Counted from the stretch's first letter, positions 4,503 through 64,000 are shown. The stretch is 64,000 bases of DNA from Minisyncoccota bacterium (GCA_041662525.1 JBAZSF010000001.1:41383-105382); one strand, 5' to 3'. Notes: generated from the letters alone by a model not told the origin. Numbers and translations: made by a program.

Positions 4503-4860
4503 ATGAAAGAACTAACTGAGGAAGAAAAAAGAGTAATAATAAACAAAGGCACAGAAGTACCGTTTACAGGTGAGTATGTTAACAATAAAGCAACCGGCGT
4601 TTATGTTTGTCGACAATGCGGGAATCCACTTTATAATTCCAAGGATAAATTTGAATCCAATTGTGGCTGGCCTTCTTTTGATGATGAGATACCTGGAGCA
4701 GTGCATAAGACTTTGGATGCCGATGGGAGTACGCACAGAGATAACTTGCACAAACTGCGGAGCACATTTGGGGCATTTGTTTATTGGTGAGCATTTAACT
4801 CCTAAAAACAAAAGATACTGCGTGAACTCTATTTCAATGAAATTTATACCCGGAAAATAG
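4503..4860 (+). pseudogene. msrB: peptide-methionine (R)-S-oxide reductase MsrB, disrupted by a +1 frameshift near 4727
   Basis: Frame 1 encodes the MsrB N-terminal half (PFTGEY...CRQCGNPLY...[10 protein letters not shown]...KTLDADGS). Frame 2 encodes the C-terminal half ([33 protein letters not shown]). Joining them needs removal of one nucleotide around agtAcgc. Confidence 0.6.
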
Positions 4861-57919: not shown

Positions 57920-58104
57920 TGACTTAAAAAAATTTTCATATATTATATTCTTAATGCAATCAAATATAGGTTTTAACAATTATTTCTTCTTTTTTAGCTT
58001 CTGGACCAAAGGTTCCAGAGTTCATTTCTGATATTGTTAAAATCATTCTAAACAAACATAACAATACAAGAAACGAGCCCTGGAACGGGCTCGTTTCTCT
58101 TTTC
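57919..58104 (+). promoter_or_regulatory. candidate promoter (TTGACT-16-TATTAT), ~150-nt leader with internal hairpin, and intrinsic terminator (58071-58104) upstream of the tandem paralog genes: attenuator-like leader or small RNA
   Basis: Terminator aaacgagccc-tggaa-cgggctcgttt + ctctttt. Upstream GGTTCCAG (58011) can pair with the CTGGAAC in the terminator (possible antiterminator). Confidence 0.35.
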
Positions 58105-58184
58105 AAGAGGAAATTTTCTTTGAAATCAAAATAAAAACAGCTATCTTTGATAGTTGAAAAGATAGAGAGAAAGGAGAAAGGAAA

Positions 58185-58613
58185 ATGACTCAAAAAGAAA
58201 AACAAAAAATAGTTTTTCGTAGTCTTCATGTGAATTTTGGCGACATGGTCGTCACTATTCACGAAATGAGTAGAGGGGGTGTCCTCTACTATTTTTTCAA
58301 CAATTTCGGAAGGTTTAAAGAAATATCTTTTCCGTCAGAAGAAGAGGTAGAGGAATTTTGTCAGGAACACCCTGATAAATTAGCTCCTAAGCTTTTTTCA
58401 ACCTTTTTTCTGTGCAAAAGAGAAAAAAGGTTTATCGTTATTAGGGTGGTAGTAAAAGATTTCCAAAAAATTGATCTGGAGGAGATTTCTCTAAGATCAA
58501 AGGAAGAATGGAGCCCTTGGCATAGGGTGGTAGTAGTGGTGCCACCAAAGAAATCTACAAAACAACAAACAGCTGTATTAGTAGCTACAAAAAACAAAGG
58601 GGGTAGTAAATAA
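58185..58613 (+). CDS. hypothetical protein (142 aa), tandem paralog A
   Basis: Strong SD AAAGGAG; shares FC-x-(E/D)HP(D/N)KLA, FFLCK and EWSP(W/L)H(R/W)VVVV(V/L)PP with the next gene. Confidence 0.5.
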   Translation: MTQKEKQKIVFRSLHVNFGDMVVTIHEMSRGGVLYYFFNNFGRFKEISFPSEEEVEEFCQEHPDKLAPKLFSTFFLCKREKRFIVIRVVVKDFQKIDLEEISLRSKEEWSPWHRVVVVVPPKKSTKQQTAVLVATKNKGGSK

Positions 58614-58614
58614 A

Positions 58615-59061
58615 ATGAAGAAAAAAGATAATTTTTATTTTTCAAAGGTAGGGTCGTTACTTGCAGTTAGAAAAAATAGCGTGCTTCGTAAAGCATACGA
58701 GAATTTATTCAACAGAAGTCCGCAAGTTATTTTTCGTGACCAGCATGTAGCTGGTTACGAAATGAGAGAAAGAGGCACTCTCGAAAATTTTTTCTCTAGC
58801 CTTGATCTCGGAAAAATTGAAAACCTTTGTTTCGAATTACGAAGCGAGATTGACGATTTTTGTCGAGACCACCCCAACAAATTGGCGAGGAATCGTCGTT
58901 ACACTTTTTTCCTCTGCAAAGAGGGGGGAAGTATAACAGTCATTCGCATCTGCGTGAATGACTACTCAGAACTCATTATTGATGAGTTTCCTATAAATTA
59001 TGGACTTGAGTGGAGTCCGTTGCATTGGGTGGTTGTTGTATTACCGCCCGAAAAGAAATAG
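58615..59061 (+). CDS. hypothetical protein (148 aa), tandem paralog B
   Basis: Starts 1 nt after the paralog A stop; same motif set. Confidence 0.5.
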   Translation: MKKKDNFYFSKVGSLLAVRKNSVLRKAYENLFNRSPQVIFRDQHVAGYEMRERGTLENFFSSLDLGKIENLCFELRSEIDDFCRDHPNKLARNRRYTFFLCKEGGSITVIRICVNDYSELIIDEFPINYGLEWSPLHWVVVVLPPEKK

Positions 59062-59080
59062 AAATATCGCTTTATCAATC

Positions 59081-59126
59081 ATGCCGCCCAGAGGTCTTCG
59101 ACCAAAAGGCGGCATTCTTATTTTAT
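59081..59126. terminator. terminator between the convergent paralog pair and trpA
   Basis: atgccgcc-(19)-ggcggcat followed by tcttatttta. Confidence 0.6.
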
Positions 59127-59909
59127 AACTTTATACATAAATTTATTAGCCTCTGATACGATTTCAGAATTTTTACTTTTTCTTATAACATCAATTATTG
59201 CACTTCCAATAATTCCTATTTCTGAATATCTTTTTATTAATTTTAAATCTTTTGATGAAGAAATACCAAAACCAACAGCAAGTGGAATTGAGGACCCACC
59301 TCTTACTCGCTCCAAATATAAACTAATATCTTTTGCAAATTTTTTACCTGTTCCTGTGGTTCCTTGCCTCGATGTGCAATAAATAAAACCACTCGCCAAT
59401 TTTTTAATTTCTTGAAGTCGATTATCTTCTATTGCCGGAGAAATTACATAAATAAGATGCACTCTTGCTTTTGTGGCATAATTTTGTAATGTTTTACACT
59501 CTTCTGTGTCATAAGGAAGGTCGGGAACAATCAGCCCAGAAACTCCAGAATCTTTACAAGCAACACAAAAACGCTCAATACCCATATGAATTAAAATATT
59601 TGCGTATGTCATTAAAACTACAGGTGTTTTAAGATTTTTACTCACAAATTTTGCCAACTCAAAACTATCTTTAATTCTTGTACCCGCATCAAGAGATTTC
59701 TGGCAAGCCTCAACGATTAATGTGCCGTCAGCCATTGGATCAGAAAAAGGGATTTGAATTTCTATAATATTTGCCCCGCCTTTTACTAAAGCTTTAGCAA
59801 TTCTTTTTGAAAGTGAAAATGTTGGGTAACCCGTCACCAAATGTGCCATTACTCCAATTCTTTTTCTCTCTTTAATTTTTTCTATAACGATATCAATTTT
59901 ATTTTTCAT
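59118..59909 (-). CDS. trpA: tryptophan synthase alpha chain
   Basis: TIM-barrel TrpA with conserved YxNP-like region (YANILIH...GVSGLIVPDLP) and C-terminal GFGISS. Confidence 0.85.
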   Translation of the reverse strand: MKNKIDIVIEKIKERKRIGVMAHLVTGYPTFSLSKRIAKALVKGGANIIEIQIPFSDPMADGTLIVEACQKSLDAGTRIKDSFELAKFVSKNLKTPVVLMTYANILIHMGIERFCVACKDSGVSGLIVPDLPYDTEECKTLQNYATKARVHLIYVISPAIEDNRLQEIKKLASGFIYCTSRQGTTGTGKKFAKDISLYLERVRGGSSIPLAVGFGISSSKDLKLIKRYSEIGIIGSAIIDVIRKSKNSEIVSEANKFMYKVIK

Positions 59910-61131
59910 ATCTTTTTATTTCTTCAACGAGAAACTTTTTAAATTCTTTATTATTAATAAAACGAGTAATGTTAAAAAGATCTTTATCTCCTCTTCCTGA
60001 CACATTCACAACCACAATTTTCTTTTTTGATAATGTTGGTAAAATTTTAAAAGCAGAAGCAAGTGCATGGGAAGACTCAAGAGCTGGAATAATTCCTTCA
60101 TATTTAGCCGTTATTTGAAAAGCTTCTATGGCTTCCTTGTCAGATGCAGATTGAAGCTCTATCCTTTTGTTTTTATAAAATTCTACAAGTTCAGGGCCCA
60201 TCCCTGGATAATCAAGACCAGCTGCAATACTATCTGTCGGAGCAATGTGTCCTTCTTTCGTTTGAAGAAACAATGATTTATATCCTTGAAAAATCCCCAA
60301 ACTTCCATTTTCTTTTCTTATTGCATTTTCTCCTATCTTTTTCCCAACTCCCCCTGCTTCTACACCAACAAGCCTGACATTTCTATTTTTTATAAAATCA
60401 TAAAATGCTCCAATCGCATTACTACCACCACCCACACAAGCAAATACAAAATCTGGAAGTTTTTGTTCTTTTTTTTCTAACTGTTTTTTAATTTCTTTTC
60501 CAATAATTGACTGAAAAGTTCGATTCATAATAGGATATGGGTGAGGACCAAGCACAGAACCAATCACATAATAACTTTCATCAGAATTTCCCATCCAATA
60601 TTTAAGCGCCTCATTTACAGCATCTTTTAAAGTCTTACTACCCGAAGAAACACTTATTACTTCAGCTCCCAATTGCTCCATCCAAAAAACATTTGGTCTT
60701 TGACGAGCAATGTCTTTTTCGCCCATAAAAATTTTACATTTAAAACCAAATTTTGCTGCAATAGTCGCAGTAGCTACTCCATGTTGGCCAGCACCTGTTT
60801 CTGCAATAAGTTCTTTTTTGCCAAGTCTTTTAGCAATAAGCGCCTGTCCAATACAATGAGTAATCTTGTGAGCACCTGTATGATTTGCTCCCTCATTTTT
60901 AAAATATAATTTTGCCCCTCCAAAATGTTTTGTAAGATTTTCTGCATAAATCAGAGGGGTGGGGCGCCCACTATATGAATCTAGAAGTTCAAAAAATTCT
61001 TTCTGAAATTTTTTATCTTTCATAGCTTTTTTAAATTCAGTTTCTATTTCCTTAAGCGCATGAACAAGCATTTCTGGTATGTAAGCTCCACCATATTGAC
61101 CAAAGTATCCATTTTTTGTTTTTGTTTTCAT
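59899..61131 (-). CDS. trpB: tryptophan synthase beta chain
   Basis: GQYGGAYIPE, HTGAHKI (PLP Lys), GAGQHGVATA motifs. Confidence 0.9.
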   Translation of the reverse strand: MKTKTKNGYFGQYGGAYIPEMLVHALKEIETEFKKAMKDKKFQKEFFELLDSYSGRPTPLIYAENLTKHFGGAKLYFKNEGANHTGAHKITHCIGQALIAKRLGKKELIAETGAGQHGVATATIAAKFGFKCKIFMGEKDIARQRPNVFWMEQLGAEVISVSSGSKTLKDAVNEALKYWMGNSDESYYVIGSVLGPHPYPIMNRTFQSIIGKEIKKQLEKKEQKLPDFVFACVGGGSNAIGAFYDFIKNRNVRLVGVEAGGVGKKIGENAIRKENGSLGIFQGYKSLFLQTKEGHIAPTDSIAAGLDYPGMGPELVEFYKNKRIELQSASDKEAIEAFQITAKYEGIIPALESSHALASAFKILPTLSKKKIVVVNVSGRGDKDLFNITRFINNKEFKKFLVEEIKRYEK

Positions 61132-61190
61132 ATTAAAAATTAGTTATTAATAATTTAAGCCAGCAGTGGTCCTCTCGGGCACTGCTGGCT
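61132..61190 (-). terminator. intrinsic terminator / attenuator hairpin immediately upstream of trpB
   Basis: Minus-strand agccagcagtg-(11)-cactgctggct, an 11-bp perfect stem, followed by a U-rich tract (ttaaattattaataactaattttt). Confidence 0.65.
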
Positions 61191-61198
61191 AACATCGA

Positions 61199-61414
61199 TC
61201 ACAACCCTATTATGCTACCCCAGCCATCTCTGGGACGCTCTATTGTCATACGAGTCTGTGGTTCTTTGTCCAAAGATTCACGTATGACCAAAGAGATATT
61301 GCATGTTTTGCAAAAACCCAACCAAACCTTAGGCATATCCTCAATAAAGACAACTCTGCTCTTACATTTTGGACATATTTTTACCGGAAGTTGAATTCTT
61401 TCTTCAAGCAACAT
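61199..61414 (-). CDS. small zinc-ribbon protein (71 aa) encoded in the trpB leader
   Basis: SD AAAGGAGG; ICPKCKSR...FCKTCNIS has two CxxC pairs. Confidence 0.45.
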   Translation of the reverse strand: MLLEERIQLPVKICPKCKSRVVFIEDMPKVWLGFCKTCNISLVIRESLDKEPQTRMTIERPRDGWGSIIGL

Positions 61415-61665
61415 AAAGACCTCCTTTCAAAGAACAAAATCAGCGCTTTTTATTGCGCTGTTTAATGGATTGCTTTTTTAGATTATATATAAAAGAAATC
61501 AACAGAATAGCGCAAAAACGTTTACCTTTGCGCCCCACCAAGAATTTAATTTATAAATTTCTTGTTTTTTATTTTGTTGATTTTTACTCAATATCATCAT
61601 ACTAGTATGCTAGTATATATAAAAAATAAAAGCAAGTATATAAATAATATAACTGTGGAAAACTT
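61415..61665 (-). promoter_or_regulatory. trp leader region: candidate promoter overlapped by palindrome ATACTAGTAT-gc-TAGTATAT (61598-61618), then two hairpins with U-rich tails before the leader ORF
   Basis: ACTAGT core as in the E. coli trp operator; hairpins gcgcaaa-(10)-tttgcgc and cagcgc-aataaaaa-gcgctg on the minus strand. Confidence 0.45.
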
Positions 61666-61962
61666 TTATTTCAAAACTTTTAAAGCTCGTCTGAGCCCTC
61701 CTTCTTTTTTGCGCATTTCACGAGATCCACGAGTAACTGTTGCTACTCCTAAATGTAAAGCTTCAGCGATAGCCTGATGATGCTCCCCTTCTGCTAGGCG
61801 CTTTACTATTTGCCACCTTACTCCAATATTATCGAACTCTCTCGGTGTTAAAATATCTTTCACAAAATCACCCAAAAGAGCTTTATCTTTGGAGATTTTA
61901 TGAATCACTTCAATTACTTCTTTTTTATATTGTTCTGAATTATTTTTCATACTAGTATACAT
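61666..61962 (-). CDS. TrpR-like protein, YerC/YecD family (second copy)
   Basis: ILTPREFDNIGVRWQIVKRLAEGEHHQAIAEALHLGVATVTRGSRE: HTH of the YerC/YecD family. The start overlaps the trpS end, and that overlap contains ATACTAGTATAC. Confidence 0.75.
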   Translation of the reverse strand: MYTSMKNNSEQYKKEVIEVIHKISKDKALLGDFVKDILTPREFDNIGVRWQIVKRLAEGEHHQAIAEALHLGVATVTRGSREMRKKEGGLRRALKVLK

Positions 61963-62923
61963 TCACCCCGATCTTTTCTCGCACTTCGGTCATTTTTTTA
62001 GAAGCGACGATTTTTGCTTTTTCGCCACCAGCTTTTAAGATTTCAAGGGCTTTAGGTATATCTTTTTCAAATTCTTTTCTCTTCTCTCGAAGTGGTGCTA
62101 TAAATTTTTCTAAATCTTCTATCAGCATTTCTTTCAGTTCCTTATACTTACCAGCTTTTTCTGCGTAAATCTTTTTTAGCTCTTCTTCTGAACGAAAGAG
62201 TTTGTGAATAGCATAAACATTTTGTGGAATTCCCCCACTAGAATCCGTCACAATGCTCATCACGCATTTTTTTATTTCTTCATATTCTGCAAAAAGCGGA
62301 ATGGTGTTACCATAACTTTTACTCATCTTTCTGCCATCTGTTCCAGGCACAATTGCTACTTCTTTCATAATCATTGGCTCTGGCAATTTGAAAGTCTGAC
62401 TTTCTGTCTGATTCCCTTCCCCATAAATATTATTAAATTTCTCGGCTATATCACGAGCAATCTCTACATGCTGTTTTTGATCAGCTCCCACCGGTACAAG
62501 ATCAGGACTATACATCAAAATATCAGCCGCCATTAAAACCGGATAATTAAAAGTACCTACATCGATTTCTTTATTCTTTGCCTCTGCATCTTTAAAAGCA
62601 TGCGCTCGCATTAGAAATGGCATGGTGGTAATGGTGTCGAAAATCCAGGCAAGCTCTGTGTGTTCAGAAATATCACTTTGCTTGAAAAATGTCACTTTTT
62701 TGGGATCAAGACCAATGGTTAAATAATCAAGCAAAACATTTTTTATATTTTCCTTCATTTCCTTAGGATTACGAAGAGAATGCAAAGCATGATAATCGGC
62801 TATAAAAACAAAGCCGTCATGCTCATTTTGCAGGTCCACGAATTGCTTCATCGCCCCAAAATAGTTGCCAATATGTGGCTTTCCTGAAGGCTGAACTCCT
62901 GATAAGAATATTTTTTTAGACAT
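61952..62923 (-). CDS. trpS: tryptophan--tRNA ligase
   Basis: GVQPSGKPHIGNYFGA (HIGH-like) and KMSKS. Confidence 0.9.
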   Translation of the reverse strand: MSKKIFLSGVQPSGKPHIGNYFGAMKQFVDLQNEHDGFVFIADYHALHSLRNPKEMKENIKNVLLDYLTIGLDPKKVTFFKQSDISEHTELAWIFDTITTMPFLMRAHAFKDAEAKNKEIDVGTFNYPVLMAADILMYSPDLVPVGADQKQHVEIARDIAEKFNNIYGEGNQTESQTFKLPEPMIMKEVAIVPGTDGRKMSKSYGNTIPLFAEYEEIKKCVMSIVTDSSGGIPQNVYAIHKLFRSEEELKKIYAEKAGKYKELKEMLIEDLEKFIAPLREKRKEFEKDIPKALEILKAGGEKAKIVASKKMTEVREKIGVNVY

Positions 62924-62980
62924 ATTTATATATTATCATAATTGTCCACATTTTAATAACATCTTTGCTAACTTTTAGGC

Positions 62981-63008
62981 TTTGCTATTCATTCAATTGT
63001 GCTAGAAT
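62981..63008 (+). promoter_or_regulatory. promoter TTTGCT-16-TGcTAGAAT (extended -10) ending 6 nt before the dnaB ATG (leaderless)
   Basis: tttgctattcattcaattgtgctagaat; ATG at 63015. Confidence 0.4.
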
Positions 63009-63014
63009 GACGTA

Positions 63015-64000
63015 ATGGTTAAGGTAATAAAAAATAATAATCTACGCATCCCCCCACAAAGCATCCCTTCTGAACAGGCAGTTCTCGGTTCTATAATGCT
63101 CCGCAAAGATGCGATGCATGAAGTAGAAGACATGGTCACACCGGACTCTTTTTATGTTGAAAAACATAAAAAAATTTTTCAGGCGATGCTTGATTTGTCG
63201 GCAAAAAATGAACCGATCGACATGCTTTCCCTCTCTACAAAATTAAAAGAACAAAAACTCCTCGAAGGAGTCGGTGGTAACCAATATTTAGCTGAAATTG
63301 TAAACGTTGTTCCTTCGAGTACTAACATCAAACATTATGCTGATATTGTCCAAAAAAAATATGTTCTGCGAAGTTTGATAGAGGCAGCAGACTATGTATC
63401 TGAACTTGCTTTTGAAGAAGGAGATGACCACATGGATGACATTTTAGATATGGCGGAAAAGAGAATTTTCGGTGTAGTTTCATCTCCGAAAAATCAAAAA
63501 TATGTGAACTTAAAAGATGCCTTGCCAGAAGCCTATGAGCGTTTGGAAAAATTACACGAAACTAAAGGTATGCTTCGAGGGTTAGCCACTGGATTTAAAG
63601 ATTTAGACAGCATGCTCTCTGGGTTGCAAAAATCAGACTTGGTTATCTTGGCAGCTAGACCAAGTATGGGTAAGACTACTCTCGCCTTAGACATAGCCCG
63701 CATGTCTGGAGTATTACATGAAAAATCTATTTTAATATTTTCCTTAGAAATGTCTTCTCAACAATTAGTGGACAGAATGCTCTCTGCTGAAAGCCGAGTG
63801 AATGCTTGGAATCTGCGTACAGGGCATTTGTCTTCTGATCGAGATTTTTCTCAATTGCGAGACTCGTTAGATAAACTCGCTAAAGCAAAAATCTATATTG
63901 ATGATCAACCTGGAAATTCTATTGTTAAAATGAAAGCTCTTTCTCGCAGACTCAAAGCAGAAAAAGGACTCGATCTCATTGTGGTGGATTATTTACAGCT
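63015..64000 (+). CDS. dnaB: replicative DNA helicase, 3'-partial (runs off the window end)
   Basis: N-terminal PPQSIPSEQAVLGSIML, then Walker A ILAARPSMGKTTLALD and LFSLEMS. Confidence 0.9.
   Translation, partial: MVKVIKNNNLRIPPQSIPSEQAVLGSIMLRKDAMHEVEDMVTPDSFYVEKHKKIFQAMLDLSAKNEPIDMLSLSTKLKEQKLLEGVGGNQYLAEIVNVVPSSTNIKHYADIVQKKYVLRSLIEAADYVSELAFEEGDDHMDDILDMAEKRIFGVVSSPKNQKYVNLKDALPEAYERLEKLHETKGMLRGLATGFKDLDSMLSGLQKSDLVILAARPSMGKTTLALDIARMSGVLHEKSILIFSLEMSSQQLVDRMLSAESRVNAWNLRTGHLSSDRDFSQLRDSLDKLAKAKIYIDDQPGNSIVKMKALSRRLKAEKGLDLIVVDYLQ

Follow-up and report, generated by a model that had tools for sequence, protein, structure and literature searches.

Predicted TrpR repression and ribosome-mediated attenuation of a zinc-ribbon-trpB-trpA operon in Candidatus Nomurabacteria

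Which signals determine whether a bacterium of the Candidate Phyla Radiation (CPR, or Patescibacteria) expresses its tryptophan (Trp) synthase genes? This question is raised by a locus within a 64,000-nucleotide (nt) stretch of the genome of a Minisyncoccota bacterium (GCA_041662525.1, JBAZSF010000001.1:41383-105382; hereafter the window), in which trpB and trpA follow a gene for a TrpR-like protein and a spacer with a promoter-like sequence, an ACTAGT palindrome and hairpins. CPR bacteria are uncultivated and have minimal genomes, and almost nothing is known about their gene regulation; full-text literature searches returned no paper that connects CPR/Patescibacteria with TrpR, with attenuation of trp genes or with the salvage of indole. 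From the sequence of the window and its comparison with related loci, we consider it very probable that the operon formed by a small zinc-ribbon gene, trpB and trpA is controlled in Candidatus Nomurabacteria, a CPR lineage, by the classical combination of repression by TrpR and ribosome-mediated attenuation.

All genes of the locus lie on the minus strand and are read from 62923 to 59118 in the order trpS, trpR, a 71-amino-acid (aa) open reading frame (ORF), trpB and trpA. This order, including the overlap between trpS and the TrpR-like gene, had been described in a first-pass annotation of the window and is borne out by Pfam and NCBIfam. TrpS (tryptophan--tRNA ligase, 323 aa, 61952-62923) matches Pfam tRNA-synt_1b (8.8e-63) and NCBIfam TIGR00233 (285 bits, cutoff 176.75), while TrpB (tryptophan synthase beta, 410 aa, 59899-61131) scores 570 bits with TIGR00263 (cutoff 392). 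TrpA (tryptophan synthase alpha, 263 aa, 59118-59909), whose gene overlaps trpB by 11 nt, matches Pfam Trp_syntA (6e-66) and TIGR00262 (214.6 bits, cutoff 102). The regulator gene spans 61666-61950; an ORF finder places its start at 61962 (98 aa), and the ATG at 61950, which yields 94 aa, is the likely start because most of its homologues have 94-97 aa.

The first step of the answer concerns the identity of this regulator, which had been assigned to the YerC/YecD family of TrpR-like proteins. Its membership in the wider TrpR family is clear: it reaches 52.7 bits with Pfam Trp_repressor (PF01371; gathering cutoff 27) and covers positions 5-86 of the 88 in the profile. The YerC/YecD assignment is not supported, with 19.6 bits for TIGR02531 (cutoff 42.2), over residues 26-83 only, against 43.3 bits for the TrpR model TIGR01321, the best-scoring model of all. 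The closest structures in the PDB are those of E. coli TrpR. Crystallography has established which residues of TrpR bind the co-repressor and read the DNA (T44, R54, R69, S88 and the stretch I79-A80-T81-x-T83-R84-G85-S86). Aligned with the E. coli protein, the regulator retains the equivalents of the LTP motif, T44 and R54, and its DNA-reading helix E has the sequence VATVTRGS (IATITRGS in E. coli), which preserves the ATxTRGS motif. Given these motifs, the relative scores of the two models and the closest structures, the regulator is, by sequence, a TrpR-family protein nearer to true TrpR than to YerC/YecD. We found 406 homologues of it, mostly Nomurabacteria proteins of 94-97 aa, and those from metagenome-assembled genomes of Candidatus Nomurabacteria/Patescibacteria are 80-94% identical to it.

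Where would such a protein bind? The window contains exactly two copies of the 10-mer ATACTAGTAT (61599-61608 and 61949-61958), compared to 0.08 expected, and a count of two was reached in 1 of 100 shuffles. The enrichment belongs to the 10-mer alone, as plain ACTAGT matches the window 12 times with 9.2 matches expected. At the first position, a one-mismatch copy (61607-61616) overlaps the exact one, so that both form a tandem site, ATACTAGCATACTAGTAT (61599-61616), whose two CTAG centres are 8 bp apart and which overlaps both a -10 element and the start codon of a leader ORF. To judge its conservation, we compared 30 related Nomurabacteria loci from species-representative genomes, each of about 8 kb and all with trpS-trpR. 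The motif lies downstream of trpR in all 30 of them: in 25 as a tandem operator with the consensus ATACTAGCATACTAGTATG, 40-130 nt from trpR, and in the remaining five as a single palindrome, TATCATACTAGTATGATG, in place of the tandem site. Within each locus, CTAG-N4-CTAG is unique to the operator, except for one extra tandem copy in L003. A metagenome scan with the 18-mer returned 119 loci, of which about 22 are of the Nomurabacteria type with trpS-trpR upstream, and about 22 further ones adjoin distant TrpR homologues of 30-60% identity. In E. coli, the trp operator ACTAGTTAACTAGT, a sequence present in 5422 of the 5426 E. coli genomes checked, has the same 8-bp spacing between its CTAG centres as ACTAGCATACTAGT in the window, and both operators overlap the -10 element. 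The conserved position downstream of trpR, the recurrence beside distant TrpR homologues and the E. coli-like spacing together argue strongly for TrpR binding at this operator. The proposal that the neighbouring TrpR-fold protein binds a promoter-overlapping ACTAGT palindrome is thus supported, and we regard it as most probably correct; the palindrome, whose absence from the trp loci of relatives would have spoken against it, is present in all of the related loci.

The promoter at this operator, which had also been recognized before, consists of a -35 element TTGCTT (61635-61630), a 17-nt spacer and a -10 element TAGCAT (61612-61607), as read from the sequence, and is followed after 6 nt by the leader ATG. 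This geometry (-35, 17 nt, -10, 6 nt, ATG) is kept in 22 of 22 related loci, in which the -35 element reads TTGCTT (12), TTGACT (7) or another variant (3), and the -10 element TAGCAT (19) or TAGTAT (3). This conserved geometry puts the predicted transcription start on the first base of the leader AUG or beside it; no Shine-Dalgarno (SD) sequence precedes the AUG, and the leader transcript is thus probably leaderless.

The leader ORF itself (61499-61600, minus strand) resembles trpL and comprises 33 codons, MMILSKNQQNKKQEIYKLNSWWGAKVNVFALFC and a stop; its ATG directly follows the second ACTAGT and abuts the operator. Two adjacent TGG codons at 61540-61535 (WW in the following) stand immediately 5' of the first of two hairpins, and the stop codon (61501-61499) lies just beyond the 3' arm of this hairpin. 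The first-pass annotation had stated that the leader lacks tandem Trp codons. This was wrong: the 71-aa ORF had been taken for the leader, and the 33-codon ORF with its TGG TGG had been missed. Homologous WW leaders are present in the relatives, with TGG TGG in 22 of 26 distinct leaders, and all 26 have their Trp codons in the reading frame set by the operator ATG, at distances of 36-81 nt that are always multiples of three. Across these leaders, frame 0 contains no stop codon, compared with 103 in frame 1 and 65 in frame 2. Since no SD precedes the AUG, translation would depend on the predicted leaderless start. That the ATG can work as a start codon is supported by L012 and L015, where a gene of the racemase family starts at the operator-embedded leader ATG.

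A simpler explanation would do without translation of this ORF: the locus would be controlled by repression only, the hairpins between 61534 and 61441 would be constitutive terminators of trpS-trpR, and trpBA would be reached by read-through or from another promoter. The missing SD speaks for such an arrangement, and so does the fact that no terminator separates trpR from the leader, so that the hairpins must end the trpR transcripts in any case. It would, however, leave several regularities without a cause, namely the reading frame kept in all 26 leaders over variable distances and free of stops, the Trp codons, which invariably stand directly 5' of region 1, the conserved promoter that places the predicted start at the AUG, and the conserved antiterminator with its three-way covariation, described in the following. 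We therefore consider repression alone very unlikely.

The RNA downstream of the Trp codons can be divided into four regions, as in other attenuators of this type. Both of the hairpins with T-rich tails that had been annotated here are present, at 61534-61509 and 61460-61441. The first, hairpin 1:2, pairs GGCGCAAAGG with TTTTTGCGCT (61509-61534, minus strand), starts right after the Trp codons and corresponds to an anti-antiterminator or pause hairpin. The second, hairpin 3:4 (61431-61460, minus strand), was called by a terminator scan and consists of the stem CAGCGC-AATAAAAA-GCGCTG (61460-61441) followed by ATTTTGTTCT. Between them, an inverted repeat allows an alternative helix, 2:3 (61450-61518, minus strand), in which the 3' arm of hairpin 1 together with TTCTGTTGATTTCTT pairs with AAGCAATCCATTAAACAGCGC, the 5' arm of the terminator, and which would act as an antiterminator. 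With an operator-abutting WW ORF followed by hairpins 1:2, 2:3 and 3:4, classical ribosome stalling is the obvious reading. The suspicion of an attenuation-like second layer of control has proven justified in so far as this layer exists, but it is built of the 33-codon WW ORF and the hairpins at 61534-61441 and not, as had been thought, of the 71-aa ORF and the hairpin before trpB.

The leader region folds more stably than its shuffled versions (z = -3.85), and the RNAalifold consensus of 19 sequences is the antiterminator. To follow the effect of ribosome position, we folded 25 distinct sequences with ViennaRNA and masked either the WW position plus 10 nt or the stop codon; the terminator was defined by the fold with the ribosome at the stop codon and hence forms there by construction. 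With the ribosome at WW, 22 of the 25 sequences lose all terminator pairs and gain a 2:3 helix of 15-23 bp, whereas in the free RNA the terminator and hairpin 1:2 form in 23 of 25. When region 2 was shuffled, a switch with loss of the terminator was seen in 67 of 1000 cases (6.7%). In silico, terminator and antiterminator are thus mutually exclusive, and the position of the ribosome sets which of them forms in the modelled RNA.

Covariation points in the same direction for all three helices, with control pairings in which the partner columns were shifted (slid). For the antiterminator 2:3, 96% of the cells are paired, as opposed to 36-52% when slid, and column pair 50:128 is found as CG (7), UA (5) and UG (5). 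Hairpin 1:2 (19 sequences) has 95% paired cells, as opposed to 41-61%, and three pairs with both sides changed. For the terminator 3:4, whose 3' arm is out of register in the MAFFT alignment (A1), a separate alignment (A2) was made; here, 91% of the cells are paired compared to 23-68% when slid, column pair 5:24 alternates between CG (11) and UA (11), and 18 cells have both sides changed, a value reached in 0 of 500 shuffles that ignore phylogeny. Finally, the nucleotide beside the GCGC core shows three-way covariation, with region 2 as well as with region 4, as would be expected under selection for both of the alternative pairings.

A structured and strongly conserved leader RNA could also sense its signal without a ribosome, as a Trp riboswitch, as a T-box that reads tRNA-Trp or as the target of a TRAP-like protein. 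An Rfam scan of 58000-64000, both at the gathering threshold and with E up to 10, yielded no T-box, Trp leader or riboswitch, and its matches were at chance level. Furthermore, neither a specifier loop or other T-box architecture nor an array of (G/U)AG repeats is visible in the sequence, and the in-frame WW ORF already accounts for the pattern of conservation. Such a ligand- or protein-sensing leader is therefore extremely unlikely.

Taken together, control by TrpR and a translating ribosome would work in two layers. In the first, the TrpR-family protein with bound Trp would occupy the tandem operator and block initiation, because the operator overlaps the -10 element and the first leader codon. 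Transcripts that escape repression would start at or next to the leader AUG and enter the second layer. As long as charged tRNA-Trp is plentiful, a ribosome would pass the Trp codons and proceed to the stop codon, which lies inside region 2; hairpin 3:4 with its U tract would form, and transcription would terminate ahead of the zinc-ribbon gene. When Trp is scarce, the ribosome would stall on TGG TGG and cover region 1, leaving region 2 free to pair with region 3; with this antiterminator in place, RNA polymerase would continue into the zinc-ribbon gene, trpB and trpA. Transcripts that read through from trpS-trpR offer no SD at the leader AUG, and on these the default fold of 1:2 and 3:4 would also serve as the terminator of trpS-trpR. 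On their own, TrpB and TrpA would allow no more than salvage from indole plus serine.

Several observations weigh against this two-layer control or narrow what can be claimed for it. The regulator's 43.3 bits lie under the equivalog cutoff of TIGR01321 (67.25), and two of the residues known from the E. coli protein are not retained, R69 aligning to a one-residue gap and S88 being replaced by E. The leader AUG has no SD, four of the 26 leaders carry a single Trp codon at the WW position, and in three of the 25 sequences the terminator persists when the stalled ribosome is simulated. The covariation rests on few positions, as the attenuator sequences are closely related and highly conserved, and its shuffle control is blind to phylogeny. 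Moreover, the lack of an Rfam Trp-leader match means that the leader is an analogue of the enterobacterial one, or too diverged from it, and not a detectable homologue. Lastly, the two-layer model does not explain a strong hairpin directly before trpB, to which we return below.

The second exact copy of ATACTAGTAT, at the junction of trpS and trpR (61949-61958), raises the question of whether trpR also regulates itself. As noted in the first-pass annotation, the operator word recurs at the overlap of the two genes; in fact, operator and junction have the 12-mer TCATACTAGTAT in common, and the stop codon of trpS, TAG, lies inside the junction ACTAGT next to the trpR start. This single site could be an autoregulatory half-operator of TrpR. 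In about 17 relatives, an additional single palindrome, CAGCRTACTAGTATGSTG, is located between trpS and trpR, which fits autoregulation given its place upstream of trpR, and the junction ATACTAGTAT of the window occupies the position of this palindrome. We rejected the junction ATACTAGTAT as a conserved feature, since it is missing from L119, the closest relative (TrpR 94% identical), and from every other locus with overlapping trpS and trpR. Comparison of the L119 junction, GAATGTGTATGAAA, with that of the window, GAATGTATACTAGTATGAAA, points to a 6-nt insertion in the window, because the site is absent at the overlapped junction of L119. The window-specific copy may restore autoregulation of trpR in this genome. 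A related arrangement is seen in more distant lineages from the metagenome (L040, L073, L094 and L116), where TrpR-family genes start at an ATG that abuts the ACTAGT of the operator, which suggests leaderless, autoregulated trpR genes; the window trpR start, ACTAGTATGAAAAAT, has ACTAGT abutting ATG in the same manner.

Upstream of the promoter, about 18 nt from the -35 element, the window contains a DnaA-box-like 9-mer, TTTTCCACA (61654-61662, minus strand). A perfect DnaA box, TTATCCACA, is found in the 75 nt preceding the leader ATG in 15 of 22 loci, and the TTTTCCACA variant in the window and in L022; in 16 of the 17 loci carrying either sequence, the site starts at -61 to -63 relative to the leader ATG. 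DnaA-box-like sites are also part of the modules in L154 and L156. The possibility that TTCCACAG or the DnaA-box consensus is a genome-wide promoter feature was discarded, as neither is enriched in the window.

What, then, is the 71-aa ORF (61199-61414, minus strand), which lies between the attenuator and trpB? The ORF with its CxxC...CxxC pattern and its SD, AAAGGAGG at 61427-61420 and 6 nt upstream of the gene, is present as annotated; its supposed role as leader peptide is not tenable, because it belongs to a conserved protein family. Pfam and NCBIfam contain no matching family, and a word-indexed protein search returned only the ORF itself, from which it could have been taken for an orphan or a non-gene. 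This view was overturned by an exhaustive HMMER search, which found 12 homologues, the best with 58% identity (E 6e-16), among which C14, C17, D26, W31, C35 and C38 are invariant. In an AlphaFold2 (AF2) model, residues 11-45 form a core of four strands with block confidence values (pLDDT) of 80-91 and the appearance of a zinc ribbon, for which Foldseek against the PDB finds only generic zinc ribbons at E >= 0.2, the best being that of Rpb9 (E 0.2). A tblastn search of the 30 genome loci returned nothing; there, unrelated small ORFs follow the conserved SD.

Every homologue with readable DNA adjoins a TrpR operator and/or a Trp attenuator. In L153 and L154, a second WW leader and attenuator after trpBA drives the zinc-ribbon gene and then an Asp/Glu racemase gene. 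L155 has the order operator, leader, attenuator, zinc-ribbon and racemase, L157 that of tandem operator, WW leader, attenuator and zinc-ribbon, and in L158 the attenuator terminator is followed by an SD and the zinc-ribbon gene. In L156, trpR, DnaA box, promoter, operator and zinc-ribbon gene adjoin genes for DAHP synthase and prephenate dehydratase, whereas L151 and L152 show TrpR, operator, an ORF and zinc-ribbon, and L159 and L160 an operator-type site directly after the zinc-ribbon gene. By these criteria of conservation and context, the 71-aa ORF encodes a genuine small protein that recurs as the first cargo of the module and is not a leader peptide. The closest homologue (P0122, 58% identity) is encoded at 434-625 of L156, with no attenuator; the DAHP synthase and prephenate dehydratase genes of this locus (823-2806, opposite strand) place the TrpR regulon next to general aromatic amino-acid genes. 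In L159 (40-237) and L160 (upstream of 354), a 65-aa Cys-rich ORF with several CxxC motifs precedes and overlaps the gene for the homologue P0129.

The 71-aa ORF is followed after 8 nt by the hairpin mentioned above, AGCCAGCAGTG-(11 nt)-CACTGCTGGCT (61158-61190, minus strand), in the gap between zinc-ribbon gene and trpB. It had been described as an 11-bp terminator with a U-rich tail; the perfect 11-bp stem is real, but its tail, TTAAATTATTAATAAC, is A/T-rich instead of a run of U, and the hairpin is not among the calls of the terminator scan. A nearly identical hairpin is found in L026, and non-homologous strong hairpins occupy the same place in L009, L013, L020 and L154. In the first-pass annotation, ORF and hairpin had been combined into a model of their own, with a YerC/YecD-type repressor, the 71-aa ORF as leader peptide and this hairpin as the regulated terminator. 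The strong SD of the ORF, the strong hairpin right behind it and the hairpins at the same position in several relatives are in line with that model. It is nonetheless highly improbable: the ORF has no tandem Trp codons and belongs to a conserved family, in which Cys, Asp and Trp residues are invariant and the zinc-ribbon core is modelled with confidence, the hairpin has neither an alternative pairing that we could find nor a U-rich tail or a terminator call, a complete WW attenuator is already present upstream, and the regulator scores far below the YerC/YecD cutoff. With TrpR repression and the upstream WW attenuator as the preferred mechanism, the hairpin before trpB may terminate weakly or partially, mark a site of processing or stabilize the transcript. 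A separate promoter ahead of trpB was considered as well and rejected, as a minus-strand scan of 61131-61200 found none.

The association of this undescribed family, with the pattern CPxC...FIED.P.VW.GYC..C, with Trp control invites a bolder idea: it would be a dedicated member of a TrpR/attenuator regulon in Nomurabacteria-like CPR bacteria, made only upon Trp starvation and acting on the pathway itself. The unit from promoter to SD, together with the conserved DnaA-box-like site, would then be a portable expression cassette, which these minimal genomes set before varied Trp-related cargo. We put this forward as speculation that is rather unlikely to be right as a whole. In its most interesting version, the protein would be an anti-repressor that titrates Trp-bound TrpR, a TrpR counterpart of B. 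subtilis anti-TRAP; alternatively, TrpB or the co-occurring Asp/Glu-family racemase might require it as an obligatory partner. Anti-TRAP (rtpA) is a small Cys4 zinc-binding protein of the trp regulon, whose expression is coupled to the translation of Trp codons and to the charging of tRNA-Trp. Both proteins have about 50-70 aa and four cysteines, and both would be expressed in a manner coupled to Trp codons, a likeness of pure analogy: they have no sequence or family match, and the partner here would be TrpR or an enzyme and not TRAP.

The zinc-ribbon gene is not the only gene found in this position. A conserved SD, TTTGAAAGGAGG, precedes the cargo, which may be trpBA, trpB alone, trpE-trpG, a racemase-family gene or unrelated small ORFs, with aspS usually further downstream. 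In L119 (reverse strand, 960-2408 of the oriented extract), an uncharacterised protein of 482 aa stands behind operator, leader and attenuator and replaces zinc-ribbon-trpBA, which points to rapid cargo turnover; other uncharacterised proteins take the equivalent position in L007, L021, L025 and L029. The unit of promoter, operator, leader, attenuator and SD thus appears to behave as a portable cassette. Genes of the Asp/Glu-racemase family (PF01177) are a recurrent cargo in L012 (4416-5135), L015 (4337-5065) and L014 (4755-5534), as well as in L153 (4022-4783), L154 (4268-4963) and L155 (627-1319), and may serve the salvage of D-Trp or other D-amino acids. L022 carries, after the first attenuator and an SD, a second mini-ORF (4587-4616; MWWPWFWWI and a stop, five Trp in nine codons) followed by a hairpin, which looks like a second, serial Trp-sensing attenuator. 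Beyond trpA, the window contains two tandem paralogous ORFs of 142 and 148 aa on the plus strand (58185-58613 and 58615-59061), which converge on trpA, have C-terminal '...EWSP.H.VVVV.PP' motifs in common and match no Pfam family; a second contig, L150, also carries this pair.

The mechanism we propose is an ordinary one. Its novelty lies in the lineage, in the way operator, -10 element and start codon are fused, in the cassette behaviour, in the zinc-ribbon family and in the conserved DnaA-box-like element. The locus suggests that the complete textbook design of E. coli, with a repressor and a ribosome-sensed attenuator, is present in CPR bacteria in a compressed form, in which operator, -10 element and leader start codon overlap. 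We also count it as evidence that some Nomurabacteria may, like genital Chlamydia, rely on indole from a host or from neighbouring organisms. In practical terms, it offers a defined DNA motif with its cognate regulator, both accessible to in vitro tests that need no culture of the organism, a predicted leaderless leader peptide and a new family of small proteins linked to the control of Trp.

How does this locus compare with known systems? The E. coli trp operon follows the same two-layer logic, with a TrpR operator at the promoter and leader-peptide attenuation. Like trpL, the leader carries its adjacent Trp codons shortly before region 1, and it has the three alternative hairpins 1:2, 2:3 and 3:4 and a terminator with a U tract. 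Unlike trpL, it comprises 33 codons instead of 14, has no SD, starts with an AUG that abuts the operator, is predicted to be leaderless and shows no detectable homology to the enterobacterial Trp leader of Rfam. Further differences are the CPR lineage, the cargo, which is limited to the zinc-ribbon gene and trpBA where E. coli has trpEDCBA, the position of trpR immediately upstream and after trpS, and the DnaA-box-like element upstream of the promoter.

Attenuators with leaderless short ORFs have reportedly been found elsewhere, namely the polycysteine upstream ORFs (uORFs) of mycobacteria and the leaderless leader peptides of Deinococcus (bioRxiv 10.1101/834739 and PMC4007540). These have in common with the window leader a sensing uORF at the 5' end of the transcript and no SD, a position that in our case is predicted from the promoter geometry. 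They differ in the amino acid sensed and in lineage, and the window leader has its start codon embedded in a repressor operator.

A parallel in gene order is trpRBA of Chlamydia trachomatis, an organism with a reduced genome and indole salvage only, in which TrpR acts as a Trp-dependent repressor (PMC7755916). Both loci have the order trpR, intergenic regulatory region, trpB and trpA. The chlamydial TrpL, annotated with 59 aa, contains no Trp codons in succession and is regarded as attenuating poorly or not at all, and attenuation is instead supplied in trans by YtgR (PMC7755916). Thus, where attenuation in cis is considered degenerate in Chlamydia, the window has a canonical and conserved WW attenuator, and while the chlamydial operator lies at the trpR promoter, the main tandem operator of the window lies downstream of trpR, at a separate promoter.

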